DNA of 64,000 bases, from contig CAVVFV010000010.1 in NCBI GenBank assembly GCA_963747695.1, positions 133,618 to 197,617 of the forward strand, written 5' to 3'. The notes below the pieces were generated by a model. It did no database searches. It was given only the letters and a program-made list of their open reading frames with translations, and was not told the DNA's origin. The position numbers and the translations under genes were made by a program. This DNA comes from Candidatus Falkowbacteria bacterium. Its GTDB lineage: Bacteria; Patescibacteriota; Patescibacteriia; Patescibacteriales; WJLG01. This document shows, piece by piece, positions 1 through 51,524 of this stretch; position 1 is the first letter of the stretch; the number at the start of each line of letters is the position of its first letter.

Positions 1-3000
1 ACAAATAAACGGTGGTGTTTCCTTGCGTAGTCAGATTTCCGTACTGATCTTTCCGCGTTACCACATAAGCCGCTCGGTTTCCGGCAATAATATTTCCAGG
101 ATTGTTTAGAGAAAAAGCAGCGGTCACTCCGGCGGCAAAAACTGCCGTGGAGGCAGAAGAAACATCCAGCCCGGTCGATTGCGTGTCCGAAAGCGACAGA
201 TGGACTGTTTCAGCTACTTGATCGCTAATGCTGGTGGTGCCGACGCCATTGACGATATTAATAAGCCCTCCTCCGGTCGCCGAACCGGTGATCAGTAAAG
301 TCACATCCTGCTGATAATTTGTTACGACATTATTCAAAGCGTCCTCAGCTTTAACGGTAACGACGATCGGAGCATCAACTGTTCCGTCGGCGGGTTGAAC
401 GATCACGAATTTCGTGGCGACGGGAGCCGAACTCGTAACCGTGAAAGTCTGCGCGTTCGAAGTCCCGCCGCCCGGGACCGGATTGAAGACGGTAATTTCG
501 GCGGTAGAAGTTACGACAGTCAGATCTGAAGCCGGAATAGTTGCGGTTAACTCAGTTGAAGAGGAATAAGAAGTCGCTCGATCCGATCCGTTAAACCTGG
601 CAACTGAGGTATTAACGAAGTTGGTTCCTTTAACTGTCATAGTGAACTGCGAATCACCGACTGTTTTAAGATGCGGCGTGATGGATATTGTCGTGGGCAC
701 AGGATTGTTGACCGTGAAAATTTGAGCGTTGGAAGTATCGCCGTGAACCGGATTGAAGACTGTAATTTCGGCAGTGGTGGTCGCCGACAGCATATCCGAA
801 GCCGGAATAACGACTGTCAACTGCGTGGAAGATGAAAAAGAAGTAGCTCGATCCGCGCCATTGAAACGAACGATTGAACTATTTAGGAAATTGGTTCCCT
901 TCACCGTCATTATGAATTGCGCATCACCGACAGTTTTGGTGTCGGGGGAAATGGAGACGGTCGTGGGGGCCGTAGCATTGACCGTGAATGTTTGGGCATT
1001 GGAGGTGCCGCCGCCTGGTGCCGGGTTAAAGACGGTGATCTGGATAGTATCGGAGGCAGTGAGCATGTCCGAGGCCGGGATAGTCGCCGTGAGTTGGGTC
1101 GAGGAGGAATATGAAGTCACCCGATCCGAACCGTTGAAGCGGACGACCGAGGTATTGACGAAGTTAGTGCCCTTGATGGTCATGGTGAACTGGGCATCGC
1201 CCACTGTCTTGGTGTTAGGCGAAATCGAGACCGTGGTCGGGATCGGATTGTTGACCGTGAAGGTCTGGGCATTGGAGGTGCCGCCGCCGGGGGTGGTATT
1301 AAAAACAGTGATCGCCGCAGTCGTCGTAGCTTTGAGCATATCGGTCGCCGGGATGGTCGCCGTGAGTTGGGTCGAAGAGGCAAAGATAGTAGAGAGAGCC
1401 GAGCCATTGAATTGAGCGACCGAGGTATTCACAAAATTGGTGCCCTTGATGGTCATGGTGAACTGGGCATCGCCCACTGTCTTGGTGTTAGGCGAAATCG
1501 AGACCGTGGTCGGGATCGGATTGTTGACCGTGAAGGTCTGGGCATTGGAGGTGCCGCCGCCCGGAGCCGGATTGACCACGGTGATTTGGGCGGTGGTAGT
1601 CGCGTTAGTCATATCCGAGGCCGGGATGGTCGCGGTCAATTGAGTAGATGAGGCAAAGGTAGTGGTTCTGTTTGATCCGTTGAATTGAACTTGGGAAGTG
1701 GCGACGAAATTGGTGCCCTTGATGATCACGGTGAACTGGGCATCGCCCACTGTCTTGGTGTTAGGCGAAATCGAGACCGTGGTCGGGATCGGATTGTTGA
1801 CCGTGAAGGTCTGGGCATTGGAGGTGCCGCCGCCGGGGGTGGTATTAAAAACAGTGATCGCCGCAGTCGTCGTAGCTTTGAGCATATCGGTCGCCGGGAT
1901 GGTCGCCGTGAGTTGGGTCGAGGATGAAAATGTGGTTGTGAGATTCGAACCATTATAACGAGCGACTGAGGAAGTAACGAAGTCGGCGCCCTTGATAGTC
2001 ATCACGAATTGAGCATCCCCTACTGTTTTAGTTGCAGGTGAGATCGAGACAGTTGTCGGGACCGGATAATTCACCGTAAAACTCTGAGCGTTAGAAGTGC
2101 CGCCAAAGGGAGATGGATTGAATACCGTGATCTGATCGGTGGTAGTTGCTTTTAATAAATCTGAAGCAAGGATCGTCGCGGTCAATTGAGTAGAAGAGGA
2201 AAAAGTAGTCGTGCGACTAGACCCGTTGAATTTTACGACTGACGAAGCGATAAAATTTGTTCCTTTGACGGTAATTGTGAACTGGGCATCATAAACGTTT
2301 TTAGTCGCGGGCGAAACAGAAACAGTCGTCGGCACCGGATTACCCGCGGTAATTCCAGTCGAAAGAGTTGAGCTGGATTTGTTGCCGGCATAATCGTAAG
2401 CCCAAATGGAAAAACTGTATCTGGTCGCGAAACTCAAACCGGTTACGGTGGTCGTCACCTTACGGTTAAAATTAATATTACGCAAATTAGCATCGGAAGA
2501 TGAACCCCAAAGCAAATCAGTTTCATGAATCGGAGTGGAAGTGCCAACGCGATAATAAATCTTATACTGTCTAAACAGGGCGGCATCTTCGGTCGAGGTA
2601 GCGCCATATTTTAAAGTCATTGAAGCGGTGGTGGAAGCAGTGGGAGTTAGCGCGCCGGGAGCGGTTGGCACCGAGGTATCAACTTTAAAATTGGGGCTGG
2701 CGGCATTGAACGCCGTCCAATTTTTTGAGCAGACGCTGCTGGAATCGCAAGCAAGCGATTGCCATTTGTAGCCGGTGGTGGAAGCGGTGGAATCCGGCAG
2801 ACTGATGATCTTCACCGCTTTTTTATTGTTGGTCAGATAATATTGTTCCGGGGTCGTAGTCGTATAGAAAGTTCCCGGCGAACTCATATTATTGTACTCA
2901 GTTGAAAGCCATTTGGGTGATCGGGCAACGGAGACGATGCGGACTTCGTCGATGGCGCCGCGAAACCACTCCTTGATCGCTGTGCCGCCGAAATAAGATC

Positions 3001-4246
3001 GTCCGATCTGCGTCGGGTCGGTGTCGCCCGCGAGTGAGCCGGAAATAGCCACCGGCGTTCCTTGCGCCGCGCCGTTATAATAAAAACGCAAGTTAGCGCC
3101 GTCATAAGTTGAAGCGACATAGTTGTATGAGCCGGAGACGATGCCGGTCGTACCGGTCAAGCCGTATTGCGTGCCGCCAACGTCAATTTCCGTGCGCAGG
3201 TGTTGCGGAGTTGAGGCGTCATAGGTCAAGTTGTAAATACTGTACGGAGCCGCCGCAGTGGGAGTGGTTTTGGCCACGATCTTGGCATTTGCCACTTGCG
3301 TCGGTTTGGGACTGATCCAGGCCGACAAGGTCATATTGGTAAGAGCGGTCAGGTTGCCGAGATTGATACCGGTGGTCGCTCCATCAAAACTTCTTGCGCC
3401 GTTGGCACCGCCGAATTTGCTGGTGGTCGCCGTCGTACCGACATTCGTTCCATTGAAAGAACCGACTGAATCCTTAAAATTACTATTGTTCAAGTGATAA
3501 ACCGAGATATAGCTATTGGTCCAAACGCCGCGGGCGCCGAAAGTCGTGGAAGAAGCCGGCTGCGAAGCGGTCGATGAACCGTAATATAAATAGAAGACGG
3601 GGTTAGACGAAGAAGAGATGGCGTCAGCGCGGAAATAAACTTCACCGGTTTTGGAGGAGGTAGAGATCGAAACGATCTCGACCGGCATTCTGGTGCCGGA
3701 GGAATTAGTGATCAAAATATCGCCGCCGTCGCTATTCCTCTTGGTATGAGTCCAGAAATTATTAGTCGAACCCAATCGATTCATTTCCAGATAGATCGGA
3801 AAATTTGTTAGAGACCCCCCGACCCTGGCCGCCTGGACCGTGATCGGCTGGCGATATTTATAACTTTTATCAAACCACCCGGTCGTGGTCGTGGCATTGG
3901 CCCAAATGCCGCTGCCGCAGGAAGAAAAAGTCGTACCGGTTTTGCAGAAAGAAGCCGGCGCGGTGGTGGCGGTAGTGAAAGAAGAAGGACTGGTGATCAA
4001 TTGGTAATAAACCAAGAACGGATCGGTTGCGTCGGAGGAAGTTGCCTGGAGATTGACCGTGCCATTGGTTACCCAAGCGCCGTTAGTGATGGCGGTCGAA
4101 GTGCTCGGTCCATATTGTTGCAGAGACGACGGATTAGCCGGCGCGGCCTGAGTGAAAAAATAACTAAAAATAAAGATGACTAAAACCATAACCAGCCCGG
4201 CGCCCATAAACCACCAATGGCTATTTTTTAATAATTTCTCCGGCAT
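1..4246 (-). CDS. Giant cell-surface protein (over 1415 aa), 5' complete, 3' end lies beyond the window start. Order: N-terminal membrane anchor, DUF2341-like region, LamG/concanavalin-like lectin domain, FN3-like domain, 7 tandem IPT/TIG-like Ig repeats, Big-like domain(s)
   Basis: Absent from the ORF track because it has no in-window stop. My translation of the minus strand is open from ATG at 4246 (MPEKLLKNSHWWFMGAGLVMVLVIFIF) to position 1. Motifs read: KYRQPITV..FPIYLEM..DGGDI; SVYHLN..FDG..LSAWI..YDGANLRFYYNG..IDEVRIVSVARSPKWL; VDTSVPTAPG..WAYDYAGN; repeated PTTVSISPNTKTVGDAQFTMTIKGTNF..SSTQLTATIPASD..GGGTSNAQTFTV. Domain names are assigned from memory of family consensus. Confidence 0.85.
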   Translation of the reverse strand, partial: MPEKLLKNSHWWFMGAGLVMVLVIFIFSYFFTQAAPANPSSLQQYGPSTSTAITNGAWVTNGTVNLQATSSDATDPFLVYYQLITSPSSFTTATTAPASFCKTGTTFSSCGSGIWANATTTTGWFDKSYKYRQPITVQAARVGGSLTNFPIYLEMNRLGSTNNFWTHTKRNSDGGDILITNSSGTRMPVEIVSISTSSKTGEVYFRADAISSSSNPVFYLYYGSSTASQPASSTTFGARGVWTNSYISVYHLNNSNFKDSVGSFNGTNVGTTATTSKFGGANGARSFDGATTGINLGNLTALTNMTLSAWISPKPTQVANAKIVAKTTPTAAAPYSIYNLTYDASTPQHLRTEIDVGGTQYGLTGTTGIVSGSYNYVASTYDGANLRFYYNGAAQGTPVAISGSLAGDTDPTQIGRSYFGGTAIKEWFRGAIDEVRIVSVARSPKWLSTEYNNMSSPGTFYTTTTPEQYYLTNNKKAVKIISLPDSTASTTGYKWQSLACDSSSVCSKNWTAFNAASPNFKVDTSVPTAPGALTPTASTTASMTLKYGATSTEDAALFRQYKIYYRVGTSTPIHETDLLWGSSSDANLRNINFNRKVTTTVTGLSFATRYSFSIWAYDYAGNKSSSTLSTGITAGNPVPTTVSVSPATKNVYDAQFTITVKGTNFIASSVVKFNGSSRTTTFSSSTQLTATILASDLLKATTTDQITVFNPSPFGGTSNAQSFTVNYPVPTTVSISPATKTVGDAQFVMTIKGADFVTSSVARYNGSNLTTTFSSSTQLTATIPATDMLKATTTAAITVFNTTPGGGTSNAQTFTVNNPIPTTVSISPNTKTVGDAQFTVIIKGTNFVATSQVQFNGSNRTTTFASSTQLTATIPASDMTNATTTAQITVVNPAPGGGTSNAQTFTVNNPIPTTVSISPNTKTVGDAQFTMTIKGTNFVNTSVAQFNGSALSTIFASSTQLTATIPATDMLKATTTAAITVFNTTPGGGTSNAQTFTVNNPIPTTVSISPNTKTVGDAQFTMTIKGTNFVNTSVVRFNGSDRVTSYSSSTQLTATIPASDMLTASDTIQITVFNPAPGGGTSNAQTFTVNATAPTTVSISPDTKTVGDAQFIMTVKGTNFLNSSIVRFNGADRATSFSSSTQLTVVIPASDMLSATTTAEITVFNPVHGDTSNAQIFTVNNPVPTTISITPHLKTVGDSQFTMTVKGTNFVNTSVARFNGSDRATSYSSSTELTATIPASDLTVVTSTAEITVFNPVPGGGTSNAQTFTVTSSAPVATKFVIVQPADGTVDAPIVVTVKAEDALNNVVTNYQQDVTLLITGSATGGGLINIVNGVGTTSISDQVAETVHLSLSDTQSTGLDVSSASTAVFAAGVTAAFSLNNPGNIIAGNRAAYVVTRKDQYGNLTTQGNTTVYL
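438..2345 (-). repeat. Seven tandem ~273-nt (91-aa) intragenic repeats encoding IPT/TIG-like domains; several units are near-identical at DNA level
   Basis: The period is set by identical shadow ORFs at 1180-1407 and 1726-1953 (offset 546 = 2x273). A ~115-nt core is identical in the three units starting near 1165, 1438 and 1711. Confidence 0.85.
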
Positions 4247-4380
4247 ATTTTTATGGATATTTTTATAATTACTAGTATTTACTTGATTTCTAGTCCGAGA
4301 AAATGAATGGTATCAACCGCGGGGCAAGCCCTGCACGCTTATTTCTAAAGGGTGTCCCCGCCGCAAACGGACGGGGTATT

Positions 4381-8362: not shown

Positions 8363-8851
8363 ATGGAAATGACAATAACCGCGGCGGTAAACCGCACCAA
8401 GATGATAACAATCGTGTTTCCCTGGGCGATTTGCCGCAGCTTGATCGCCGGTATTATCACTGTGCTGGCCTGGGTCAAAAGGATAGGGATGATAATCGCC
8501 TTTCCGCTTGCCTGTCTGTTCATCGTCGCTTTTGTCGGCTGGATAATTTTTTCCGATACTTCCGCGCCCAATTTTTATCCCGGCGCCGGAAATGCAATTG
8601 CGGCAACGGCTGCGAGCGCGAGCGGTCAGGATGACGGAGGATTCTGGGGAATTTTTCAGGCCATCGGCGAGCTGGACCAACTCTGGGCCAAGGCCAATCA
8701 AATGGAACGAGCTTACGCCGAAACCGGGTTTAATTTTAATCCGCCTTTTATGGGCTGGCTCAATCGGGACCGGGAAAATTTCCGTCAAGAAGGCAACGCC
8801 GTCATCTATGATGATGGGCAAAACAAGGCGATAATTTTTTTATCGCAATAA
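8363..8851 (+). CDS. Hypothetical membrane protein (two N-terminal TM segments)
   Basis: SD AAGGAGGG lies upstream. Hydrophobic N-terminal half. Has its own promoter and terminator. Confidence 0.6.
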   Translation: MEMTITAAVNRTKMITIVFPWAICRSLIAGIITVLAWVKRIGMIIAFPLACLFIVAFVGWIIFSDTSAPNFYPGAGNAIAATAASASGQDDGGFWGIFQAIGELDQLWAKANQMERAYAETGFNFNPPFMGWLNRDRENFRQEGNAVIYDDGQNKAIIFLSQ

Positions 8852-8965: not shown

Positions 8966-9211
8966 TTATTCCAGAGTGGGGCTGCTGCCCGAAGATAAGA
9001 TTAAATGGACGAGCTGACCGCCGTTCTTCCTTAGTTGGCGGTTAATCCGCTTCTTTTCGGCGCGGTTAAGCCTGACCAATTCCGCAGCGCTCTCCTTTTG
9101 CGAACGCAACGGATATGCCCGGCCCAAAATGCCAGGCTGCTCGGGTAAATTGTTTGAGGGCGAAGCTCCGGCTCTATTCTTCCAGGGCAATAGTTTTGAT
9201 CCCATCGTCAT
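8966..9211 (-). CDS. Small basic hypothetical protein (81 aa)
   Basis: SD GAGGGGAG lies 6 nt upstream of the ATG. No family recognised. Confidence 0.45.
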   Translation of the reverse strand: MTMGSKLLPWKNRAGASPSNNLPEQPGILGRAYPLRSQKESAAELVRLNRAEKKRINRQLRKNGGQLVHLILSSGSSPTLE

Positions 9212-9303
9212 AAAACTCCCCTCTTGATAAGTTTATCGATTTTTCCCTAAAAAAAGTACGAATTCGACTTAAAATCATAACAAAGAAAATAAAAACAATC
9301 AAC

Positions 9304-10349
9304 TGTGCGCCGGTCCGGCAGCTTCCAACCAGTTCCCTGCCTGCCGGCAGGCAGGGTTGCCCGCTGACGTGCCCCCGGCACGTCAGCGTCGCTCGATCAT
9401 TCGTCTCGGCTTCCGCCTCGACTCATATCTCGCTCGCAACCAGTTCGAATCCCCATATCTTACAAAAATAAAAATCACCCAGAGGGTGATTTTTATTTTT
9501 GTGCGCTCAGAGGGATTTCCGCGTTCGCTCGCCGCCGGAATGCGGCTCGCTCTCTTGTCCAGGGTTGCCCGCTGACGTGCCCCCGGCACGTCAGCGTCGC
9601 TCGATCATTCGTCTCGGCTTCCGCCTCGACTCATATCTCGCTCGCAACCAGTTCGAATCCCCATATCTTACAAAAATAAAAATCACCCAGAGGGTGATTT
9701 TTATTTTTGTGCGCTCAGAGGGATTTCCGCGTTCGCTCGCCGCCGGAATGCGGCTCGCTCTCTTGTCCAGGGTTGCCCGCTGACGTGCCCCCGGCACGTC
9801 AGCGTCGCTCGATCATTCGTCTCGGCTTCCGCCTCGACTCATATCTCGCTCGCAACCAGTTCGAATCCCCATATCTTACAAAAATAAAAATCACCCAGAG
9901 GGTGATTTTTATTTTTGTGCGCTCAGAGGGATTTCCGCGTTCGCTCGCCGCCGGAATGCGGCTCGCTCTCTTGTCCAGGGTTGCCCGCTGACGTGCCCCC
10001 GGCACGTCAGCGTCGCTCGATCATTCGTCTCGGCTTCCGCCTCGACTCATATCTCGCTCGCAACCAGTTCGAATCCCCATATCTTACAAAAATAAAAATC
10101 ACCCAGAGGGTGATTTTTATTTTTGTGCGCTCAGAGGGATTTCCGCGTTCGCTCGCCGCCGGAATGCGGCTCGCTCTCTTGTCCAGGGTTGCCCGCTGAC
10201 GTGCCCCCGGCACGTCAGCGTCGCTCGATCATTCGTCTCGGCTTCCGCCTCGACTCATATCTCGCTCGCAACCAGTTCGAATCCCCATATCTTACAAAAA
10301 TAAAAATCACCCAGAGGGTGATTTTTATTTTTGTGCGCTCAGAGGGATT
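9304..10349. repeat. Perfect 208-bp tandem array. Five copies of a 146-nt body plus an 18-nt tRNA-Lys 3'-end segment, and four copies of a 44-nt spacer, running directly into tRNA-Lys
   Basis: Unit starts at 9354, 9562, 9770, 9978 and 10186. The track shows four identical 68-aa and three identical 94-aa phantom ORFs at 208-nt spacing. A degenerate TGTGCGC at 9304 marks the distal boundary. Confidence 0.95.
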
Positions 10350-10406
10350 CGAACCCACGACCGTCTCCTTAAGAGGGAGCTGCTCTACCAACTGAGCTAT
10401 GAGCGC
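10334..10406 (-). tRNA. tRNA-Lys (anticodon CTT), no encoded CCA
   Basis: Hand-folded: GCGCTCA/TGAGCGC acceptor, GCTC-AGTTGGTA-GAGC D arm, CTCTTAA anticodon loop, GTGGG-TTCGAAT-CCCTC T arm. It has one U-U T-stem mismatch and one G-A anticodon-stem mismatch. Confidence 0.85.
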
Positions 10407-10412
10407 AAAATT

Positions 10413-10528
10413 CAGATTTAAGTTAAGAAAGAAGAGATAAGGGATAAAAATATAATATCAATTTAACAGAAAATAGTCATTTGTCAACAAAAAAATTTCT
10501 TATCTTTTATCTCTTCTCTCTTATCTGA
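10413..10528. repeat. Imperfect palindrome with purine-rich / pyrimidine-rich arms (CAGAT..AAGAGATAAGGGATAA ... TATCTCTTCTCTCTTATCTGA)
   Basis: Arms read directly. The core CTCTTCTCTCTTATCT recurs in trmD and queA, and near-identically in ruvB. Confidence 0.6.
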
Positions 10529-10535
10529 TTTTGTG

Positions 10536-10647: not shown

Positions 10648-10698
10648 GCCGTGCTCCCTGTCCCGCTTCGGCGGGATAACCAGCTGAGCTACCCAGCC
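10648..10698 (-). pseudogene. Truncated 5' copy of the CAT tRNA (positions ~1-31) carrying a 20-nt GC hairpin inserted in the D loop
   Basis: GGCTGGGTAGCTCAGCTGGTTA-[TCCCGCCGAAGCGGGACAGG]-GAGCACGGC, then unrelated AT-rich sequence. No anticodon or T arm. Confidence 0.75.
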
Positions 10699-10703
10699 AA
10701 ATT

Positions 10704-10768
10704 CAATTAAAAGTTAAAAATGAAAAATTACAAATAATTTTTAATTTTGCATTTTTAACTTTTAATTG
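10704..10768. repeat. Perfect 19-bp inverted repeat (CAATTAAAAGTTAAAAATG / CATTTTTAACTTTTAATTG) around a 27-nt loop
   Basis: Read directly. Confidence 0.8.
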
Positions 10769-10771
10769 ACT

Positions 10772-10847
10772 TGGTGCGCCCGGCAAGGATCGAACTCGCA
10801 GCCTCTTGGTCCGAAGCCAAGCGCTCTATCCATTGAGCTACGGGCGC
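10772..10847 (-). tRNA. tRNA-Arg (anticodon TCG), CCA encoded
   Basis: GCGCCCG/CGGGCGC acceptor, CTTGG-CTTCGGA-CCAAG anticodon arm, GCGAG-TTCGATC-CTTGC T arm, ACCA end. Confidence 0.9.
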
Positions 10848-10873
10848 AAACAAATTATTATTTTTTTCAAAAA

Positions 10874-10993
10874 GGGTCCGCCCGGTCATCCGACCGGGCG
10901 CCAGGGGTTCATCCCCTGGCGAAGCCATACACTCTATCCAGTTGAGCTACCGGAGCGCAAAAGGTGCGGGGCTATCCATTGAGCTACGAGCGC
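10874..10993 (-). pseudogene. Two truncated 5' copies of tRNA-Arg-like sequence, each followed by GC hairpin(s) and a T-run
   Basis: GCGCTCGTAGCTCAATGGATAG+CCCCGCACCTTTT (10993-10962). GCGCTCCGGTAGCTCAACTGGATAGAGTGTATGGCTTCG plus hairpins CCAGGGG-ATGAA-CCCCTGG and CCCGGTC-GGAT-GACCGGG (10958-10874). No canonical T arm. Confidence 0.7.
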
Positions 10994-14560: not shown

Positions 14561-14593
14561 AATGTTATATTGCTATATTGTTATATTGTCAAG
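14561..14593. repeat. Half-copy of the ATATTG-octamer palindrome family (TGTTATATTGCTATATTGTTATATTGTC)
   Basis: Same left arm as the elements at 22069, 31129, 36681 and 45696. Confidence 0.6.
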
Positions 14594-14650
14594 ATTGGCT
14601 GGATTTGTATAAAGTATTATGTATAATGTATGATGTATTAGGTATCTTGG

Positions 14651-22023: not shown

Positions 22024-22068
22024 ATGCTTATTTAACGCCAAGCTTTTTCTTACATTTTCTTGTCTTAA

Positions 22069-22157
22069 AATGTTATATTGTTATATTGTCATATTGTGGC
22101 GCAACGATTTAAAAACTTTTAACAATATAGCAATATAACAATATTGCAATATATTCC
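22069..22157. repeat. ATATTG-octamer palindromic element filling the infB-rbfA spacer
   Basis: TGTTATATTGTTATATTGTCATATTG-TGGCGCAACGATTTAAAAACTTTT-AACAATATAGCAATATAACAATATTGCAATATA. Confidence 0.8.
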
Positions 22158-29129: not shown

Positions 29130-29224
29130 GGAAATAAGGCCTGCGCGCAGTTTTTCTTGTCCCGTCATTTTTGCGGGATGTGCTACTTTTTTCTAAAAAA
29201 AGTGGCAAAGATTTTTGATAATAA

Positions 29225-29287
29225 TGTCGGGAATAGACCCTCCCCGCCTCGCAGGGCTCGGCACCCCTCCCGAGGAGGGGACTTTTT
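29225..29287. repeat. CCCCTC-hairpin element (family E) abutting the ftsH stop codon
   Basis: GTCGGGAATAGACCCTCCCCGCCTCGCAGGGCTCGGCACCCCTCCCGAGGAGGGGAC. An inverted copy lies at 34422-34513. Confidence 0.75.
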
Positions 29288-31118
29288 ACGCTTTCTTTCC
29301 AACTATGGCTTCGAATTCGTCTTTTTCCATCGTCTCCTTAATCATTAAGGCAGAGACGATCTTTTCCAAATCGGCTTTCTTAGTATTGAGAATCTCGACG
29401 GCGGTCTTAACCGCGGTGTTGATCAATTTACCCACTTCGCCATCGATCGCTTCGGAAGTTTTCTCGCTGTAATCACGGCCTTCGCGCATCTCGCGGCCCA
29501 AGAAAACTAATTCGTCGGAAGTGCCATAGGTGCGGATCGGCAAGTTATCGCTCATACCGTATTCAGTAACAATAGCCTTAGCGAGATCAGTTGCCGTGCG
29601 CAAATCCGAAGATGCGCCGGTGGTGACGTCGTTGAAGATTAATTTTTCCGCCATCCGTCCGGCAACGAGTACCGCCAATTCTTCGACGAATTCTTCTTTG
29701 GAATGCAAGCGGCGGTCTTCCATCGGCGTCTTCAAAGTATAGCCGGCGGCGCGACCTCTAGAGATGATCGAAATTTTTTGCACCGGATCGACGTTTTTCA
29801 AATTATGCGCAACCAGCGCATGGCCGGCTTCGTGATAGGCGGTTATTTTCTTCTCCCGGTCGGTGATAACGCGGCTTTTCCGTTCCGGACCGATCAAAAC
29901 TTTTTCGATCGAATCGAAAATCGTCTGCATCTTGATTTCTTTTTCGTCTTTCTTGGCAGTCGCGATCGCCGCTTCATTCAAAAGATTGGCCAAATCGGCG
30001 CCGGAAAAACCAGCGGTGCGCTCAGCGATCTTTTTCAAATCGACATCGGCGGACAGCGGCTTTTTTTCGGAATGGACTTTTAAGATCGCCTCTCTTTCTT
30101 TCAAATCCGGAATTTCCAAAACCACTTGGCGGTCAAAACGTCCCGGGCGCAGCAAGGCCGGATCCAAAACATCGGGACGGTTAGTCGCGGCAATGACGAT
30201 AATTTCCGTTTCCGAATCAAAACCGTCCATTTCCACCAAGATCTGATTCAAGGTCTGTTCGCGTTCGTCGTGGGAACCGCCCAACCCGGCACCGCGACGG
30301 CGGCCGACGGCATCGATTTCATCGATAAAGATTATGCAAGGCGCGGTTTTTTTCGCTTTATTAAATAAATCGCGGACACGGGAGGCGCCGACACCGACAA
30401 ACATTTCCACGAATTCTGAACCGGAAATATGATAGAACGGCACATTAGCTTCACCGGCCACGGCTTTAGCCATCAAAGTTTTGCCCGTCCCCGGGGCGCC
30501 GAGCAATAAAAATCCGCGAGGAATGCGCGCCCCGATCTCGCGGAATTTTTTAGGAAACTTTAAAAATTCAATCACTTCTTTCAATTCTTCCTTGGCTTCT
30601 TCTGAACCAGCCACGTCTTTGAAGGTGGTTTTATTCTTGGCGTCCTCGCGGAATTCCTTGGCTCCTGATTGCCCGAACATCATCGCTTTGGAATTGGCGC
30701 CGGCCACTGAACGCAGCATAAAATAGATCAGCACGCCGATGATCAAGGTCGGCAAAACTATCGGCAAAATAACCGATAACCAGTAATTAGAGCTCGAGCT
30801 GTTCTTGACTGTGATATTTATTTTTTCGATCTTATCCGGAGTGACGCCGTAATTTTTCAGCAAGTCGGACAAAGATTCACTGTCTTCCTTTTGGACGATC
30901 TTCACCGACTTGTCATTAAGCGTCTCGGTCACTTTTGTTCCCTCGACGACGATAGAAGCCACATTGCCGTTATTAATATCCTGCACCAGAGCGCCAATAT
31001 TTGAATCAGTGCTCGTCGGCTTGCTCATCAGGTTACCGCCGCCAAACAAACTGAAAATACCGGCCAAAACGAGGAACACGGCAAAAAAGATAATAAAATT
31101 TTTAATTAAATTTTTCAT
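29286..31118 (-). CDS. ftsH: ATP-dependent zinc metalloprotease FtsH
   Basis: Two N-terminal TM segments, Walker [12 protein letters not shown] region, HEAGHA zinc site. Confidence 0.95.
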
Positions 31119-31128
31119 ATTTATTATA

Positions 31129-31208
31129 TGGCTATATTGCTATATTGTTATATTGTTAAGCGATTTAAATCGTTGCGTAACAATATGACAATATGACAAT
31201 ATAACAAT
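31129..31208. repeat. ATATTG-octamer palindromic element 10 nt upstream of the ftsH start
   Basis: TGGCTATATTGCTATATTGTTATATTGTT-AAGCGATTTAAATCGTTGCG-TAACAATATGACAATATGACAATATAACAAT. Confidence 0.8.
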
Positions 31209-31304
31209 TTTATGTAACGCCCATATCATAACAAAAATAAGGGTTTTGTCAAAAAAAAGAGCCGCCGGTTTTGATTCCGACGGTTCAGCTTAAAAGTTTA
31301 GTCA

Positions 31305-33215: not shown

Positions 33216-34394
33216 CTATTTGATAAACATCGCGTCGCCATAACTGTAAAACCGATATTTTTTCTTAATCGCCTCTCGATAGGCGCGATCGATATTTTTC
33301 TTGCCGGCCAAAGCGGAAACTAACATCAATAAAGTCGATTTGGGCAGATGGAAATTGGTGATCATAGCATCGACGATCTTGAATTTATATCCCGGATAAA
33401 TAAAAATATCCACCCAATCCTTGAAGCCGCGTAGGCCCGCAATACTTTGCGGGCAGGCTTTTTCCTGCCAGCAGGCTTCCAAACTTCTCGCGCTTGTCGT
33501 TCCCACGGCGATTATCCGTGACCGCGGAACGCAAGGTATTGCGTTCCTACGATTTATTTCCGCGATAACCTTACCAACTATCTCTACCCACTCGGAATGC
33601 ATTTTATGTTCCAAGATATTTTCCGTCTTCACCGGCGCGAAAGTTCCCATTCCGACATAAAGCGTAATTTCCAAAATCTTCACGCCTTTTTTCTTAATCT
33701 TCTTCAAAAGCTCCGGCGTAAAATGCAACCCAGCCGTCGGCGCCGCCACGCTGCCGGCCTTATTATTAGCAGCATATACGGTTTGGTATTCTTGTTTGTC
33801 TTTTTCAATGATTCTCTCTTCTCTCTTATCTTTTCTCTGATTCTCTATATACGGCGGCAGCGGCACTTCGCCGATCTTTTCAATCGCTTTCATCAGCGCC
33901 GCGCCGGATTTATTGAATTGCAAATCCCAAGTACCATCATGATTATTCTTTAAAATGACGGCTGTCATCCTGAGCGGAGCGTCAGCGGAGTCGAAGGACC
34001 CCTTCGAAATTTTAGAAACTTTAAGTGGTTCCTCGACTTCGGCCGTGGCGGCCTTCGCTCGGAATGACAGATGTAAATTTTCGCTCACCCGGCCACCCAG
34101 TAAACACTGCCAAGTATTCGCGCTCAATTTTTTATGCAATAAAACTTCAACTTTCCCGCCGGTTTCTTTTTTCTTCGCCCACAGCCGCGCCGGAATGACT
34201 TTGGAATTATTCAATACCAAAATATCGCCCGGATTCAAATAATCGATGATATCAAAAAAATGCTTATGTTCGATCTTGCCCGTCTTCTTGTCCAGCACTA
34301 AAAGCCGCGAACTGTCTCGCGGCTCAGCCGGATGCGTGGCGATCAATCCATCCGGCAAATTAAAGTCGTAATCACTCAACTTCACGTAACGCAT
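33216..34394 (-). CDS. queA: S-adenosylmethionine:tRNA ribosyltransferase-isomerase, about 50 aa longer than typical because of in-frame repeat insertions
   Basis: YDFNLP..LIA..P...RD.SRLLV..; PLPPYI; GSVAAPTAGLHFT; IIAVGTTSARSLE; NFHLPKSTLLMLVSA. Confidence 0.9.
   Translation of the reverse strand: MRYVKLSDYDFNLPDGLIATHPAEPRDSSRLLVLDKKTGKIEHKHFFDIIDYLNPGDILVLNNSKVIPARLWAKKKETGGKVEVLLHKKLSANTWQCLLGGRVSENLHLSFRAKAATAEVEEPLKVSKISKGSFDSADAPLRMTAVILKNNHDGTWDLQFNKSGAALMKAIEKIGEVPLPPYIENQRKDKREERIIEKDKQEYQTVYAANNKAGSVAAPTAGLHFTPELLKKIKKKGVKILEITLYVGMGTFAPVKTENILEHKMHSEWVEIVGKVIAEINRRNAIPCVPRSRIIAVGTTSARSLEACWQEKACPQSIAGLRGFKDWVDIFIYPGYKFKIVDAMITNFHLPKSTLLMLVSALAGKKNIDRAYREAIKKKYRFYSYGDAMFIK
33963..34069. 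mobile_element. TGTCAT-terminated palindromic element (family B relative) inserted in frame inside queA
   Basis: TGTCATCCTGAGCGGAGCG..GTCGAAGGACCCCTTCGAA..GGTTCCTCGACTTCGGCC..GCCTTCGCTCGGAATGACA. Same termini and core as the intergenic copies at 55762-55871 and 56413-56523. Translated as ..RAKAATAEVEEPLKVSKISKGSFDSADAPLRMTA.. Confidence 0.75.
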
Positions 34395-34421: not shown

Positions 34422-34513
34422 AAAATCCCCTCTTGCCTGCCCCGCAAAGCGGAAGTGTGCGTGGGGGAGGGGTGACTCGCGCCGCGAGACGGGGAGGGTC
34501 TATTCCCGACATT
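34422..34513. repeat. Family E element (inverted relative to 29225-29287) between queA and the nuclease-like gene
   Basis: ..CCCCTCTTGCC..GGGGGAGGGGTGACTCGCGCCGCGAGACGGGGAGGGTCTATTCCCGAC. Confidence 0.7.
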
Positions 34514-35637: not shown

Positions 35638-36672
35638 TTAAAATAGTTTTTTATCTCTTCTCTCTTCTTTTTTATCTTTCTTCAAATGCTCATACGCGTG
35701 CGGCGTCGCGATGCGGCCGCGAGGGGAACGATCTAAAAAGCCGAGGCGGATGAGATAGGGCTCATAGACATCTTCAATCGTTTCCATTTCTTCGCCCGTG
35801 GCGGCGGCGATAGTATTGAGACCAACCGGTCCGCCGGCGAATTTATCAATAATGGTTGTTAATATTTTGCGATCCACCCAATCCAGACCGAGCTCGTCGA
35901 TTTCCAGCATGCCAAAAGCGTCGCGGCAAGTGTTGTCCGATAAGCAGCCATCGCCTTTGACGGCGGAATAATCGCGGACACGTTTTAGTAAGCGATTGGC
36001 AACTCTGGGCGTGCGGCGAGCGCGAGAAGCGATCGCTTTCAAAGCGGCCGGATCAATCTCTACGCCTAAAATCTTGGCCGAGCGTTCGACTATTTTTTCA
36101 ATATCTTTATCTTCGTAAAAATCCAAATGGTGATGATGGCCAAAGCGGTCGCGCAACGGCGCGGAAAGCATGCTGACTTTGGTGGTCGCGCCGATCAAGG
36201 TGAATCTAGGCAGATCAATGCGCACCGTGCGGGCGGCCGGACCTTTACCTAAAATAATATCCAGAGCATAATCTTCCATCGCCGGATACAAAATTTCTTC
36301 CACGGTTTTGTTCAAGCGATGGATTTCGTCGATGAACAGCACATCGCCTTCTTCCAAGTTTGATAGGATCGCCGCCAGGTCGCCGGATTTCTCAATCGCC
36401 GGGCCGGTGGTGACGCGGATGTTGGCACCCATCTCTTTCGCAATCAAATGCGCCAGCGTGGTTTTGCCTAAACCCGGCGCGCCATATAACAAAACATGCT
36501 CGATCGATTCCTTTCTCCCTTTCGCCGCCTGAATGGTAATTTCCAAACTATCCTTAACTTTATTCTGCCCGATATAGTCGGCAAATTTCTGCGGCCGCAA
36601 AGTCAAATCTAAAGAGTTGTCTTCTTTCTCCTCTTTTGGATTAATTATTCTATTAATCGATTCTTCTGGCAT
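35638..36672 (-). CDS. ruvB: Holliday junction branch migration helicase RuvB
   Basis: [27 protein letters not shown] winged helix. Confidence 0.95.
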
Positions 36673-36680
36673 GTTTCGTT

Positions 36681-36752
36681 AATGTTATATTGTTATATTG
36701 CTATATTGTTGCGCAACGAATTAAATAGTTTAACAATATAGCAATATAACAA
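36681..36752. repeat. ATATTG-octamer palindromic element filling the DUF4186-ruvB spacer
   Basis: AATGTTATATTGTTATATTGCTATATTGTT-GCGCAACGAATTAAATAGTTT-AACAATATAGCAATATAACAAT. Confidence 0.8.
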
Positions 36753-36753
36753 T

Positions 36754-37107
36754 TTAGCAATTTTCCAATATCCAACTCATTATTATATCAATAATATACC
36801 TATTTTCCTCATCGTTCAAGGCTCGGCCTTTTGGTATCTGGTGCCATTTTTCCAAACAGCCGCGGCAGCAGGTGGCCGTCGCATGTTGTCCGACGAAGAC
36901 CGGATGGCCGTGGAACGGAGTCTGCTTTCCGTCGTTTTTCGGTTCCGCTGGCACCAATCGTTCTTTAATAAATTCTTCCGCGTGCATTTTTATTTCTTCA
37001 ATCCCTTTCTTGTTGATATATTCCAAATTTTTCAGCTTCAACTTAAAACTTGAGCGAAACTTCGACTTGGCCAATCTGATTTTCAATTCTTCCCAACTTT
37101 TAAACAT
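36754..37107 (-). CDS. DUF4186-family protein
   Basis: HPVFVGQHATATCCRGCLEKWH motif, recalled from the family. Confidence 0.65.
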   Translation of the reverse strand: MFKSWEELKIRLAKSKFRSSFKLKLKNLEYINKKGIEEIKMHAEEFIKERLVPAEPKNDGKQTPFHGHPVFVGQHATATCCRGCLEKWHQIPKGRALNDEENRYIIDIIMSWILENC

Positions 37108-37767: not shown

Positions 37768-40700
37768 TTATAATTTCCTAAATTCGCAAATGCCGTTGTA
37801 GTCGCAGAATTTGCATTGCTGGCCGGGGGTCGCCGGAAATTCTCCCTTGCGGATCGCGCGGATAGTTTCAGAAATCTTTTCATCAAGCTTGGCGAAATCT
37901 TTTTCCTTGCCTAAAAATTCTATCTCGCTATTATCATTCAAATAGCGATAACAAAGCGCGCCGACTTCCTGACGGAATAATTCTTTCACGGCTTGCTGGT
38001 AAATCAATAATTGCGCTTTTTCATTGAATTCCAATTTCTCTTTGGGCTTGCCGGTTTTGTAATCAACAATCTTCAGCCTGCCATCGGGCATTTCGTCGAT
38101 GCGGTCTATTTTTCCGGCGATGGTGATCCCCTCGCCATCGATCTTCATTCGCAGGGCGAAAGCTTTTTCCAGAAACAGGACTTTCGGCCAATTATTTTTA
38201 TATTCTTCATAAAAAGCCTTGGTCATCTCTCTGCCTTTCTCGTGATATTTTTTCTTGTTGGCTTCGGTTTCATACCATTCGTCGATCCACGATTCTTCAT
38301 AAATTTTCAGGCAATCTTCCAGAGAAAGTAACACACCCCGGCCTTCGGCCACCACTCTTGATAGAGGGGAATTTTCTTTTTTATCAGCCGGAGAGACAAA
38401 TAAACTATCCTGCTTTTTTTCGCCGGCTTCTTTTACGGTTTGAAGGATTTTCTGCAAAGTTGAATGCATGGTCTTGCCGAAGGACATCTGGAAATTGCCG
38501 CGTTTGGGAACTCTTAAGATATTATCAAACCGATATTGATACGGGCAGCGTTCGTAAGCTTCAAATTGGGAATAGGAAAATCTTTCCGGCGCTTGAGGTA
38601 CCCAACTCCGCTCCGTGGCGGAGCTTCGCTGGGCAAGTCCGGCAATTTTTAATTTCTTTCCGCGCAACATTGAATTCTTATCTTCCAGCGGTTCGACCGC
38701 TTTTTCATCGGCATTGCTGATATCCAAATCTTCGGCTAATTTAGTTTCGACTAAAAATCTTGAAGCGCGTCGTTCGCGTTTCCCGCCGGCATCCGACGAC
38801 CAGGAAAAATAAATCCCTTTTTTGGCACGAGTAATCGCCACGTAAAACAACCGCCGTTCTTCTTCCAAGTGATGGTCGCCAGCGGGGATTATCTCGTCGA
38901 GCAAAGCATCAGGAATCTTGATTGACTCAGAACGCTCAATCGATGGAAATCGCTTATCGATTAAATTTATGACAAAAACGTATTTGAATTCCAAACCTTT
39001 GGCGGCGTGCACGGTCATGATTTTGATCATCGCCGGGTCTTCTTCGTCGCTCAAAGGCAATGTCCCCTGCTCGCCGGCTTCCATCTCGACCGCTAGTCCG
39101 GCCAAAAATTCCCGCACTGATTTATCGGTCGAGCTGGTCTCAAATTCCTTGATCCGCTTCATGAATTGATTAAGCTGGTTAGTCGCCAAAATCTGCTGCC
39201 GCTCCGGCTGGGCATATAGATATTTCAAATACCCGGTGTCTTCGAGAAAATCCGAAAATATTTCCGAGGCCGGTTTATAGCGCGCATCCGCGGCGTGCTT
39301 GCGGAAAATTGCCAAAAATTTGTTGATCTTTTCCAAGGTTGCGCTGCCCAAACCCAGCGCTGAAGCTTCATTCAAGACTTTATAGAGCGACATGGCTTTG
39401 CGCGAAACGATATAATTCATCGCCGCCAATTCTTCGGCGGTAAAATTGAAAACCGGCAAAGTCAAAACTTTATACAAAGCCACGCCGTCATATTGGTCGG
39501 CCACGGCAGTCAGATAACTGATTGAATTGATAATCGGTATTGCCGCGTAAAGTCCGCGAGAAGAAAATAATTTATAAGGAAACTGCGCCTCGTCCAGATA
39601 GACGCAAATTTCCTTGCCCGCGTCATTAGATCTAGCCATAATCGCAAAGTCTCCCCAATTCGCCTCTTTGTCCTCAGTTTTTAGTTCGGCAATTTTCTTG
39701 ACCACCCGAACCATCTCATCGGCGGTATCGGCGCCGCGAATCACTTCAATCGAACCAGCATCTTTAAAATTCGCTTTTAATTTCTTAGATAATTTATCAC
39801 CGTCGTTCTTCAATTGCTCCTCTAGGCGGTTGGGATTATTCAATTTGATAAAATCATAGGCCAGATCCAAAATATTCTGCCGGTTGCGGTAATTCTCAAT
39901 CAAAAAAACCTGTTTGGCGTCAGGGTAATCTTTTTTGAATTCCAAAATATTGGCCATGGCCGCGCCGCGGAAGCGGTAGATCGCCTGGTCATCGTCGCCG
40001 ACGACCGTAATATTATTTTGCGGGGCAGCCAATAATTTCACCAGTTCATATTGCGCCCAATTCGTATCCTGGAATTCATCGACTAGAATATATTTGAACC
40101 TGGTTTGATAGCGCGCCAACACATTCGGCCGCTCGCGGAAAAGCTTAAGGCAATAATTGATCAGATCGCCAAAGTCCAGCGCATTATTTTCCAACAATAA
40201 ATTTTGGTAGATATGAAAAGCATTGGCCACTTCCTCAATCTTTTTAACTTCGAATTCCGCCACTTCCTGATCGAATTCACCTTTGGCATTAAGAAAATCT
40301 GCCGTAGGCGCGCAATGCTTCGTGGGTCCGCAATGCTTTGCGTACCGGTCTTCTTCACTGCTTTTCGGAACGCAAGGTATTGCGTTTCTACGTCCGCTTA
40401 GCATCCCGTCCAGATTCTGCCGCAGCTCTTCGGCATATTCCAAATATTTCAACGGCGTGATGTCTTCGTCTTTGCAACGGGAAAAATGCTTGAGCAAGTC
40501 GCGGATGAATTTGGTCGGGTTGCCCATCGGCCGATAATAATCCAGGCCGAACCGGTCCAGATGTTTCTTGAACAAAGCATACTGCTGATATTCGTCGAGC
40601 AATTTATAATCGGTCGGCAAACCGATATCTAAACCGGCTTCAGTCAAAACATCCTGGCAGAAAGAATGGAAAGTGGAAATCGACAAATCAAAAAAAGCGC

Positions 40701-43057: not shown

Positions 43058-43130
43058 TCTTCTTACTTCTTACTTCTTACTTCTTACTTCTTACTTCTTA
43101 CTTCTTACTTCTTACTTCTTACTTCTTACT
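43058..43130. repeat. Heptanucleotide microsatellite, (TCTTACT) x10.4, equal to (GAAGTAA)n on the minus strand
   Basis: Counted 10 exact units across 43061-43130. The last unit contains the final Lys codon and the TAA stop of the DUF4340 gene. Confidence 0.95.
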
Positions 43131-45680: not shown

Positions 45681-45695
45681 ATTTTTAAATTATTA

Positions 45696-45790
45696 AATGT
45701 TATATTGTTATATTGTTACTCAACGAATTTGATTACTCGGCGCATTTTTTTCACAACGCAACAATATGACAATATATCAATATGGCAATT
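45696..45790. repeat. ATATTG-octamer palindromic element filling the permease-GldG spacer
   Basis: AATGTTATATTGTTATATTGTTACTCAACGAATTT..CACAACGCAACAATATGACAATATATCAATATGGCAAT. Confidence 0.75.
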
Positions 45791-45795
45791 TTATA

Positions 45796-50651: not shown

Positions 50652-50660
50652 AGATATTTA

Positions 50661-50712
50661 ATTCCCCTCTTGGGAGGGGTGTCTGCCCCGCACGGACGGG
50701 GTGGGTTTATTG
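50661..50712. repeat. Family E element
   Basis: TTCCCCTCTTGGGAGGGGTGTCTGCCCCGCACGGACGGGGTGGGTTT. Confidence 0.7.
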
Positions 50713-51469: not shown

Positions 51470-51477
51470 AAATTTAA

Positions 51478-51524
51478 GTCCCCTCTTGAGAGGGGTGGCC
51501 GAAGGCCGGGGTGTGTGAAGATTT
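51478..51524. repeat. Family E element (reverse orientation) directly 3' of the DUF559 gene
   Basis: CCCCTCTTGAGAGGGGTGGCCGAAGGCCGGGGTGTGTGAAGATT. Confidence 0.75.

Follow-up and report, generated by a model that had tools for sequence, protein, structure and literature searches.

The 64,000 nucleotides analyzed here (the window) come from a Candidatus Falkowbacteria bacterium (contig CAVVFV010000010.1, positions 133,618 to 197,617) and carry, at 9304-10349, a perfect tandem array of a 208-bp unit. The array abuts tRNA-Lys, the last gene of an Arg(TCG)-Met-Lys tRNA cluster. We report that the unit belongs to an undescribed family of cassettes, structured and protein-less, which lie behind tRNA genes and are bracketed by copies of the 3' end of the same tRNA; our literature searches found no description of such elements.

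The array behind tRNA-Lys

Tandem Repeats Finder (TRF) gave a period of 208 with 4.8 copies, 100% matches, and 0 indels at 9352-10349, and by direct string comparison every full 208-bp period was identical to the others, a perfection that cannot arise randomly and that rules out a chance origin. Of the units in the array four are complete and a fifth is truncated, with a 48-bp relic beyond it (Table 1); the covariance model described below recovered four full cores and one partial core from the window. The 18-mer TGTGCGCTCAGAGGGATT occurred five times, at 9500, 9708, 9916, 10124, and 10332, the copy at 10332 being the tRNA-Lys gene's own 3' end, that is, the final 16 nt of the tRNA (A58-A73) plus 2 trailer nt (10332-10349). 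The 41-nt palindrome with the terminator, here called T1, and the 12-mer GTTCGAATCCCC were likewise each present five times, and a single unit is bracketed by a 57-bp repeat consisting of the tRNA 3' end and T1. A preliminary description, made from the sequence without database searches, had reported five head-to-tail copies free of differences; the copies are indeed identical, but only four are complete, the fifth being truncated after ...GGGCAACCCTG at 9352 and lacking the GGACAAGAGAG linker, hairpin C, and the direct tRNA copy. The distal boundary had been placed correctly, with TGTGCGC at 9304, and the hairpins listed there (an 11-bp GC hairpin, a 17/18-bp hairpin flanked by A and T, and an extra one in the "spacer") were all found. 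Between that boundary and the truncated unit, GGGAACTGGTTGGAAGC is similar to the beginning of the type C units described below, which suggests that 9304-9351 is what is left of an older cassette of a different kind.

Two other identities for the array were considered and rejected. A CRISPR array would have unique spacers, and here entire 208-bp periods are identical; the plus-strand open reading frames (ORFs) of 90-94 aa are artefacts of the repeat, their exact product being on record nowhere.

It could also be argued that the copy number, as distinct from the unit, is an assembly artefact in which a single or double copy was inflated. All copies are 100% identical, as this would have it, and the only independent assembly of this genotype, a short-read (Logan) assembly of ERR11748453, breaks here and cannot count copies. 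Its contig L011 shares the distal junction and breaks within the array: it begins inside the repeated body and then runs into the unique distal truncation junction, where ...CCCTG is followed by CCTGCC. This layout is consistent with an assembly branch between that junction and the internal one, where ...CCCTG is followed by GACAAG, and a branch caused by the repeat speaks against inflation. So do the length of the source contig (453,905 bp), the tendency of assemblers to collapse such repeats and not to expand them, and the fact that other genomes (L016, L021, L024, L002) show stacking and a further perfect tandem duplicate. We consider an inflated count quite improbable.

Anatomy of the unit

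On the tRNA strand the discriminator is followed, in order, by T1, the 8-nt spacer TAAGATAT, the 12 nt GGGGATTCGAAC, a GC-rich body of ~130 nt, and a direct copy of A58-A73 plus CA. T1 is a perfect 18-bp hairpin flanked by A- and T-tracts, and by its sequence it looks like a bidirectional intrinsic terminator. Each complete unit ends, as had been described, with 18 nt identical to the tRNA-Lys 3' end, all five 18-mers having been located, and the reading of each period on the tRNA strand as a tRNA 3'-end copy followed by an intrinsic-terminator-like hairpin was upheld. The final 11 of the 12 nt of GGGGATTCGAAC, namely GGGATTCGAAC, are the exact reverse complement of tRNA-Lys G53-C63. The "T-arm-like" segment TTCGAATCCCC of the preliminary description is this same element; it is present, but it lies on the strand opposite to the tRNA and repeats the local T loop and T stem in inverted orientation, reading GGGGATTCGAAC on the tRNA strand. 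In the predicted fold the inverted and direct copies are able to pair (GGGGAUU with AAUCCCU) and so close the body. The unit is thus bracketed by direct repeats of the tRNA 3' end, much as attL and attR flank an integrated element, and its ends can also pair into a helix resembling that of the acceptor and T stems. Both strands of the unit fold far better than shuffled sequences (z = -5.9 and -6.5), which palindromes are expected to do and which does not tell the active strand apart.

Table 1. Positions of the array, its parts, and neighboring features in the window (strand of the tRNA-Lys gene, -)
Feature	Position	Strand	Further copies	Basis
tRNA-Lys(CTT), intact	10333-10406	-		ARAGORN; Rfam tRNA, 68.4 bits
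Promoter-like site TTGACA-16-TAAATT upstream of tRNA-Lys, within AT-rich palindromic spacer	10460-10487	-		Consensus match only
Unit 1 (208 nt): terminator-like T1, 8-nt spacer TAAGATAT, inverted T-arm copy, structured core, direct tRNA 3'-end copy	10124-10331	-		TRF, model, string comparison
Unit 2, same sequence as unit 1	9916-10123	-		TRF, model, string comparison
Unit 3, same sequence as unit 1	9708-9915	-		TRF, model, string comparison
Unit 4, same sequence as unit 1	9500-9707	-		TRF, model, string comparison
Unit 5, truncated: terminator-like T1, spacer, inverted copy, core as far as ...GGGCAACCCTG	9352-9499	-		Partial model match 9329-9452, 96 bits
Putative relic (48 nt) of an older, different cassette; ends in GGCGCACA	9304-9351	-		Direct reading and comparison with type C units
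Palindrome T1, ACAAAAATAAAAATCACCC-AGA-GGGTGATTTTTATTTTTGT	10294-10334		10086-10126, 9878-9918, 9670-9710, 9462-9502	
Inverted T-arm copy GGGGATTCGAAC	10275-10286	-	10067-10078, 9859-9870, 9651-9662, 9443-9454	
Direct tRNA-Lys 3'-end copy AATCCCTCTGAGCGCACA (A58 to discriminator plus 2 nt)	10124-10141	-	9916-9933, 9708-9725, 9500-9517	
Structured core of unit 1	10144-10284	-	9936-10076, 9728-9868, 9520-9660	Covariance model R1, 150 bits
Helix P2, 5' strand GGTTGC, pairing with GCAACC at 10187-10192; encloses hairpins A and B	10268-10273	-		Alignment fold
Hairpin A, broken by internal loops; apex GAGGCGGAAGCCGAG, in types B and C GAGGGAACGAG	10220-10267	-		Alignment fold
Hairpin B, GCTGACGTGCC-GGG-GGCACGTCAGC	10195-10219	-		Alignment fold
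Conserved unpaired linker CTGGACAAGAGAG, within family motif ACCCYGGACAAGRGAG	10174-10186	-		Invariant columns
Hairpin C with tandem G-A/A-G internal loop	10151-10173	-		Alignment fold
Conserved core 3' tail GAACGCG (family motif GAMCGCG)	10144-10150	-		Alignment
GC-rich double hairpins at gene ends	29223-29279, 34465-34513, 38331-38367, 50660-50706, 51476-51516, 51968-52005, 52030-52082, 55131-55185			

Related units in other genomes

About 20 homologous, diverged units were found in other Patescibacteria-like contigs (numbered here as loci with the prefix L). The exact HU protein, which is encoded 1 kb from the array, was used to reach related contigs with the same Arg-Met-Lys cluster; L001 and L002 carry two or three homologous, diverged units behind tRNA-Lys. 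The genome and metagenome collections, each scanned once with a pattern, added 14 true loci and one chance match (L013, Frankiales), which lies inside a coding region and was discarded, and HU homologues led to six more loci with DNA carrying the tRNA-Lys gene or its cluster. The resulting sample of ~20 loci includes several from related strains, and the strict scan pattern biases it to close relatives. The preliminary description had proposed searching other genomes for the 146-nt body, and the search yielded homologous structured units behind many tRNAs, so the unit is not a one-off.

Every true unit but that of L020, where a tRNA gene was not detected immediately upstream, lies on the tRNA strand, 0-25 nt past the terminator of either a tRNA gene or a relic of one. 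The partner tRNAs are Lys(CTT), Leu(CAA), Ser(TGA), Ser(CGA), Ser(GCT), Gly(TCC), and Glu(CTC), and the hosts are Patescibacteria according to the NCBI names of identical or near-identical proteins. The database labels of some metagenome-assembled genomes, L012, L015, L016, and L018 (CAYNAR01, CAZJPG01) and L014 and L017 (DATJQC01), read "uncultured Gammaproteobacteria" and "Candidatus Nanoarchaeia"; these labels are contradicted by the gene content of the contigs (RecG, NusB, RNase III) and by the Patescibacteria names of near-identical proteins, and mislabelling or mis-binning of L012 and L014-L018 is likely.

The ends of 13 units were tabulated and compared with the tRNAs that they follow. 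The first 10-13 nt of the unit were exactly antisense to the local tRNA from G53 to C62-C65 in 12 of the 13, and variants at T-loop position 59 (AAT, ATT, ACT) were mirrored in the inverted copy: TTCGATT of tRNA-Leu is matched by GGGAATCGAAC, and TTCGACT of tRNA-Gly by GGGGAGTCGAAC, the latter in one A-type and one C-type unit alike. The direct copy starts at A58 (at G57 in one unit), is 17-23 nt long, and was intact in 7 of the 13 units; it sometimes continues through a copy of the terminator, the direct repeats overall spanning 17-62 nt (tRNA 3' end with or without terminator). Only in a few units (unit 2 of L001, unit 2 of L002, L041, and L020) was the acceptor-stem part of the inverted copy intact, and elsewhere it had decayed, whereas the inner T-arm part was exact even in units whose direct copy is lost. 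The terminal inverted repeats thus track the neighboring tRNA, with 6-8 bp able to pair in most copies and 12-19 bp in unit 2 of L001, unit 2 of L002, and L020.

The T arm is tracked exactly, the junctions fall at 53 and 57/58, and a spare "3' exon" is attached together with a terminator, features compatible with a guided element that has no protein gene. Its 5' 11-13 nt would pair across T-loop position 57/58 of the neighboring tRNA or its gene, and its core, acting as RNA or single-stranded DNA in a catalytic or recruiting role, would link the element's own 3' end to A58; insertion into the tRNA gene guided in the manner of a small ribozyme or a splint, or replacement or repair of the tRNA 3' end in trans, are conceivable forms of such an element. 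We regard it as a long shot.

A conserved and covarying core

Fifteen distinct cores of ~142-145 nt aligned at 67% mean column identity, and RNAalifold predicted 34 pairs arranged as helix P2 around hairpins A and B, the invariant linker ACCCYGGACAAGRGAG, hairpin C, and the tail GAMCGCG. Double compensatory changes were found at 27 of these 34 pairs. Paired cells amounted to 96.3%, compared with 72.7% in column shuffles and at most 52% with slid partners, and the covariation score was 0.686, compared with 0.235 in shuffles and at most 0.17 in slid controls; neither value was attained in any of 500 shuffles. Helix P2, for example, covaries as GGTCAG/CTGACC and GGTTGG/CCAACC. The 11-12-bp stem of hairpin B, with its G-rich loop, is always paired, and its sequence is hypervariable, being swapped wholesale even between close relatives. 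Base pairs kept by compensatory changes beyond controls mark the core as a conserved structured element, either RNA or single-stranded DNA. A covariance model built from the cores, R1, scores full-length units at 105-157 bits and finds no other copy in the 64-kb window outside the array.

The pairs comprise 453 Watson-Crick, 10 G-U, and 3 A-C. The excess of G-U over A-C on the tRNA-sense strand (p about 0.05, from sequences that are not independent) weakly favors that strand; G-U makes up 2% of paired cells, a scarcity that would also be compatible with a fold of single-stranded DNA.

A family of host small-RNA genes would account for such a core. Transcription of the units would run along the tRNA strand, either starting at a weak -10-like box past the upstream terminator or reading through from the tRNA; the transcripts would stop at a terminator of their own or have their ends cut by tRNA-processing enzymes, and an array would mean a higher dosage. 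The core, closed by the acceptor/T-stem-like helix, would have its role in tRNA metabolism, for instance through base pairing to the T arm of the neighboring (pre-)tRNA; the decoy or regulator role suggested in the preliminary description is speculative. Strong covariation combined with invariant unpaired motifs is what functional RNAs show, and the 10 to 3 ratio of G-U to A-C on the tRNA-sense strand, the layout (-10-like TAnnAT, 5' stem, core, 3' stem, terminator), and the intact cores of units without the closing helix all argue for this explanation. Moreover, even where direct copies have decayed, the inner stretch of 11-13 nt, which is antisense to the local T arm, is still exact, suggesting pairing with the tRNA or its gene. 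On the other hand, a consensus scan found no canonical promoter in the unit, and AT-rich spacers yield TAnnAT boxes by chance; several units (L026 and unit 2 of L024) have no terminator past the direct copy; and a G-U share of just 2% is low for an RNA evolving by point mutation. Close relatives also differ at one locus in the type, number, and order of their units, and L035 and L040 show truncated or rearranged forms, which would be unusual for an essential RNA gene. We regard small-RNA genes as unlikely, while giving them real weight as the main rival of the explanation preferred below.

Turnover of cassettes among loci

The units cluster by type (A, B, C) across loci and not within arrays. 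Those of type A (the window, unit 1 of L001, L014, unit 1 of L021, L022, and L026) are 79-91% identical despite their association with Lys, Gly, and Glu tRNAs and one tRNA relic; unit 1 of L021, behind tRNA-Gly, and L026, behind tRNA-Lys, are 91% identical, and the two units of the L021 array are only 61% identical to each other (the second represented by near-identical L019). Across types identity is only 55-70%. L019 and L021 share their downstream sequence and differ in what precedes it: L019 has tRNA-Gly, terminator, and C, whereas L021 has tRNA-Gly, terminator, A, direct copy, terminator, and C. Tandem duplication also occurs outside the window genome, a 55-nt prefix being repeated in L016 at 218-bp spacing as a perfect duplicate, and tandem stacking was seen in L016, L021, L024, and L002.

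The region behind orthologous tRNA-Lys genes was compared among genomes whose HU proteins are 96-100% identical. The window has 4.8 type A units and the presumed type C relic; L001 has A, a short form (S), and a fragment; L002 has B, A, and a short form (S); L026 has A; L035 has a short rearranged form; and L041 has C with a full 20-nt inverted copy. L037 and L038 carry an unrelated AT-rich element of ~125 nt whose final 20 nt likewise copy the tRNA 3' end perfectly, and L040 carries the AT-rich element, a direct copy, and then T1-TAAGATAT-GGGGATTCAAAC with a degenerate B body. The module formed by T1, spacer, and inverted copy is identical in the window, L001, and L035, where it directly follows tRNA-Lys. 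In L040 the extra AT-rich element sits between the tRNA and the T1 module, which is displaced and follows the displaced 3'-end copy, as would be expected if an element inserted at the tRNA 3' end and the tRNA was regenerated. One and the same module precedes different bodies in different genomes, and from these sequences the bodies seem exchangeable between fixed flanks.

Differing bodies between constant flanks are also what one would see if the cassettes were by-products of DNA metabolism. Template switching at the palindromes formed by the terminator and by TTCGAA of the T loop would make the series direct copy, terminator, inverted copy, direct copy; GC-rich hairpins would then spread among tRNA flanks by ectopic gene conversion via T-arm sequence and be kept as promoters of stalling and switching. 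It fits this proposal that a single long palindrome, near-perfect in L041 and unit 2 of L002, is made up of tRNA 3' end, terminator, and inverted copy, that both body junctions lie inside the T loop, that the stems are almost all Watson-Crick and the hairpin B stem is swapped whole between close relatives, and that palindromic intergenic spacers are abundant in these genomes. It leaves unexplained, however, the invariant unpaired motifs and a multi-helix architecture conserved among types only 55-70% identical. The inverted copy, moreover, decays nearest the center of the palindrome and is kept farthest away, the opposite of what hairpin-templated correction predicts, and the body-less intermediate was not found in a regular-expression scan of all loci. 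Such by-products seem to us improbable.

The AT-rich elements constitute a second gene-less family (~125 nt) behind tRNA-Lys, at L037 4434-4585, L038 4509-4655, and L040 3963-4108. Their bounds are a terminator and 20 nt copied perfectly from the tRNA 3' end (TTCGAATCCCTCTGAGCGCA), and members are 72-83% identical. Their 3' part resembles a tRNA from the anticodon arm on, with the 5' strand of the T stem replaced by a small covarying hairpin.

Known families and integrases

At the gathering thresholds of Rfam (15) only three tRNAs in the window matched, and below threshold only tRNAs and noise appeared (E up to 10 for the window region, up to 0.5 for six other loci). Candidates tried individually were also rejected: a group I intron or its relic, there being no Intron_gpI match even at E = 10, and a hidden tRNA or transfer-messenger RNA (tmRNA), neither ARAGORN nor the Rfam tRNA model calling one in the unit on either strand. 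In IMG/VR a loose pattern hit seven loci, none of which was confirmed by the model or had a tRNA, and we take these for chance matches. An all-versus-all comparison of ORFs within 4 kb of 15 loci, made in search of a shared neighbor protein, gave syntenic housekeeping genes only. Some 50 ORFs of the window were put through Pfam and are themselves housekeeping (IF-2, TrmD, FtsH, S1, QueA, RuvB, an AddA-like helicase-nuclease, UvrC, DnaK/DnaJ, HrcA, and ABC transporters), with no integrase, transposase, reverse transcriptase, or Rep among them; the earlier remark that no integrase lies nearby thus applies to the whole 64 kb.

The preliminary description had seen in the duplicated tRNA 3' end the signature of site-specific integration, its leading idea; on that reading such units would be decayed scars of integrase-mediated islands or prophages in tRNA genes (attL, remnant, attR). 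The layout of intact tRNA, insert, and direct repeat of the 3' end beginning in the T loop is indeed the classical signature, different inserts are stacked behind one tRNA as in tandem accretion, and the history of L019 and L021 and of L040 is insertion-like; what that description had not seen is that the body is a covarying element present behind many tRNAs. Among the features by which islands are recognized, the displaced 3'-end direct repeat was present (7 of 13 units), as was presence or absence among relatives (L019 versus L021; L040 versus the window, L001, and L035), but no linked tyrosine or serine recombinase was found: the inserts measure 150-210 bp, Pfam gave none in the window, and the loci have no shared neighbor. 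Scars are further contradicted by the remnant, which is always the same ~145-nt core, its left edge coinciding exactly with the inverted T-arm copy at 0-25 nt from the terminator, as random deletion would not yield; by the covarying fold; by the lack of an integrase gene or fragment at any of the ~20 loci; and by the inverted copy of the core region, which classical att sites do not have. We hold this explanation to be very improbable.

A model for the array

The explanation that we prefer, tentatively and with slightly more doubt than belief, is a family of non-autonomous cassettes that insert or recombine at tRNA 3' ends and that was amplified here via the 57-bp repeats. The cassettes would be insertion or recombination elements that enter the T-loop/3'-end region and leave the tRNA intact, with the near-universal T-arm sequence serving as homology or guide. 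The enzyme would work in trans, as an unlinked recombinase or as part of the host recombination or replication machinery, and the part under selection would be the folded core, as RNA or single-stranded DNA. The array itself would be a recent tandem amplification of one family member, recent because no copy has mutated yet. Unequal recombination, slippage, or repeated integration into the regenerated site may have multiplied the cassette through the 57-bp direct repeats of tRNA 3' end and T1; the identical head-to-tail units and the bounding repeat that unequal recombination or slippage calls for were both found.

Several observations weigh against the model of mobile cassettes. The mechanism is wholly inferred. 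No recombinase and no circular or excised form was found at the loci examined, the regular-expression scan over all loci for a body-less ("empty") site with inverted and direct copies gave only chance matches, and no known vehicle emerged, there being no blastn match to the unit in phage and plasmid collections and no match to the strict pattern in IMG/VR. Three loci in one genome (L012, L015, and L018) are 65-79% identical, so that mobility, if any, is slow. The combination of a constant module with differing bodies (the window, L001, L035, L040) fits body exchange by homologous recombination at least as well as site-specific integration. Strong covariation reflects long-term selection on the fold, which a host-beneficial RNA gene would also show. 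Finally, the copy number of 4.8 is the count in one assembly.

Other features of the window

The T arm of tRNA-Lys has a U50-U64 mismatch (GTGGG/CCCTC), which had been taken as a mark of a 3' end derived from the repeat. The same mismatch occurs in L001, L002, L026, L035, L037, L038, L040, and L041; it is no sign of a repeat-derived 3' end because it is a lineage trait in all eight relatives, whatever lies downstream.

Fragments of tRNAs also occur upstream of the genes in this cluster. At 10650-10700 (-), ~45 nt upstream of the true tRNA-Met, lies a tRNA-Met 5' fragment (positions 1-31) with a GC hairpin in the D loop; the same pseudo-5'-tRNA arrangement, with other hairpin sequence, is found at L001 6546-6612 and L026 ~4177-4250, and L026 has an equivalent pseudo-5'-tRNA-Lys upstream of tRNA-Lys. 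Two tRNA-Arg 5' fragments precede the true tRNA-Arg in the window (10866-10990, -) and in L002 (6517-6650). The longer of them extends to the anticodon (36/37), with two GC hairpins and a T run behind it, and may represent a small-RNA gene or else what remains of a tRNA that carried an intron or was duplicated. The inter-tRNA spacers 10412-10533 and 10700-10772 each form a long AT-rich palindrome, at whose center lies the promoter-like site of the following tRNA, and in relatives (L035, L037, L038) this architecture is kept with quite different sequences.

Between the array and purB, two ORFs, 8966-9211 (-; 81 aa) and 8363-8851 (+; 162 aa), have no Pfam match, and apart from the Logan assembly of ERR11748453 no record contains their exact sequences; a promoter-like site for the 81-aa ORF lies directly beyond the array, at 9274-9302. 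At the edge of the window, the 270/273-bp tandem repeats at 477-2104 are in-frame TIG/IPT domain repeats inside ORF 1-4246 (-), a surface protein of >1415 aa that runs off the window.

Intergenic motif clusters with an 8-nt period (TATTGTTA / TATTGCTA) lie at 14561-14619, 22044-22155, 31111-31213, 36664-36766, and 45663-45796, some of them as inverted pairs ~9 kb apart (22067-22113 and 31164-31210 are 91% complementary). An 82-nt intergenic repeat family has copies at 33988-34069, 55790-55871, and 56442-56523, which are 67-79% identical to the first copy, and two of its copies flank a grpE-like ORF beside hrcA and dnaK. The heptamer CTTCTTA is perfectly repeated 10.6 times at 43059-43132. The GC-rich double hairpins at gene ends (Table 1) consist of CCCCTCT.GAGAGGGG followed by a second GC hairpin and are probably terminators or modules resembling repetitive extragenic palindromic (REP) sequences.

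Comparison with known systems

The genomes of Patescibacteria are tiny and leave little room for junk, and the phylum is not yet genetically tractable. Despite this small size, their tRNA flanks hold stacked, fast-turnover, gene-less cassettes with a selected fold. If mobile, these would be the smallest tRNA-targeting insertion elements known and one would want to know by what machinery a 150-bp element that restores its tRNA is moved; if they are RNAs, they would be a new structured class tied to tRNA 3' ends. Covariance model R1 makes the family searchable, and the locus is a handy strain-level marker. There is a practical side as well, in that such arrays and tRNA fragments can break assemblies and mislead island finders that use tRNA fragments as att sites.

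Integrative elements that target tRNA genes leave an intact tRNA, an insert, and a repeat of the tRNA 3' end. Their known hotspots include tRNA-Lys(CTT), and the cis-mobilizable elements (CIMEs) of streptococci are without their own recombinase. The cassette resembles such elements in its intact tRNA, its insert, its direct repeat starting in the T loop, and its tandem accretion, and like CIMEs it has no recombinase of its own. It differs from CIMEs in being only 150-210 bp long and gene-free, and in having a covarying multi-hairpin core and an inverted T-arm copy at the other end; we know of no integrase-bearing element cognate to it.

In having short, non-coding GC-rich hairpins, AT-rich spacers, compensatory changes, and subfamilies, the cassette is like miniature inverted-repeat transposable elements (MITEs), REP sequences and bacterial interspersed mosaic elements (BIMEs), Rickettsia palindromic elements (RPEs), and the double-hairpin elements of fungal mitochondria. 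Its ends are inverted repeats, but with a sequence copied from the neighboring tRNA. Unlike repeats of the MITE type, it has no target-site duplication of fixed length (the direct repeats span 17-62 nt) and shows no dispersal, with no copy beyond the array in the 64 kb and all fetched copies except L020 behind tRNA genes or relics.

Integron cassette arrays consist of small, promoterless, head-to-tail units whose attC palindromes are conserved more in structure than in sequence, and they can lack an integrase, as in clusters of attC sites lacking integron integrases (CALINs). Here too small head-to-tail units are divided by an imperfect palindrome, and their order may reflect the history of insertion. 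By inspection, however, the boxes R''/L''-L'/R' are missing: TTCGAAC and GTTCGAA fit RYYYAAC and GTTRRRY at five of seven positions each, and the direct copy is without GTTCG. IntI is missing as well, a tRNA gene anchors the array, and the content of the cassette is itself the conserved structured part.

YrlA and Y RNAs are reportedly tRNA-mimicking bacterial RNAs. As in these and in the tRNA-like domain of tmRNA, the 5' and 3' ends of the cassette can form an acceptor/T-stem-like helix that closes a structured body. The likeness ends there: the cassette has no Rfam match, its mimic is literally the 3' strand of the neighboring tRNA plus its complement, the T loop is not kept as a loop, and the acceptor part decays in most copies.

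Group I introns within patescibacterial tRNA genes lie in the anticodon loop at 35/36 (Nakagawa et al. 2026, PMC13011429). The cassette, found in the same host phylum, has a 5' segment that would pair with both sides of 57/58 (CGAAC with G53-G57 and GGGAUU with A58-C63), in the manner of a group I internal guide sequence with its P1 and P10 layout; unlike those introns, it lies outside the tRNA, has a body of ~130 nt, and does not match Intron_gpI. The cassette thus belongs to none of the CIMEs, the MITE, REP, and RPE repeats, the integron arrays, or the tRNA-mimicking RNAs, each of which differs from it in at least one defining feature.

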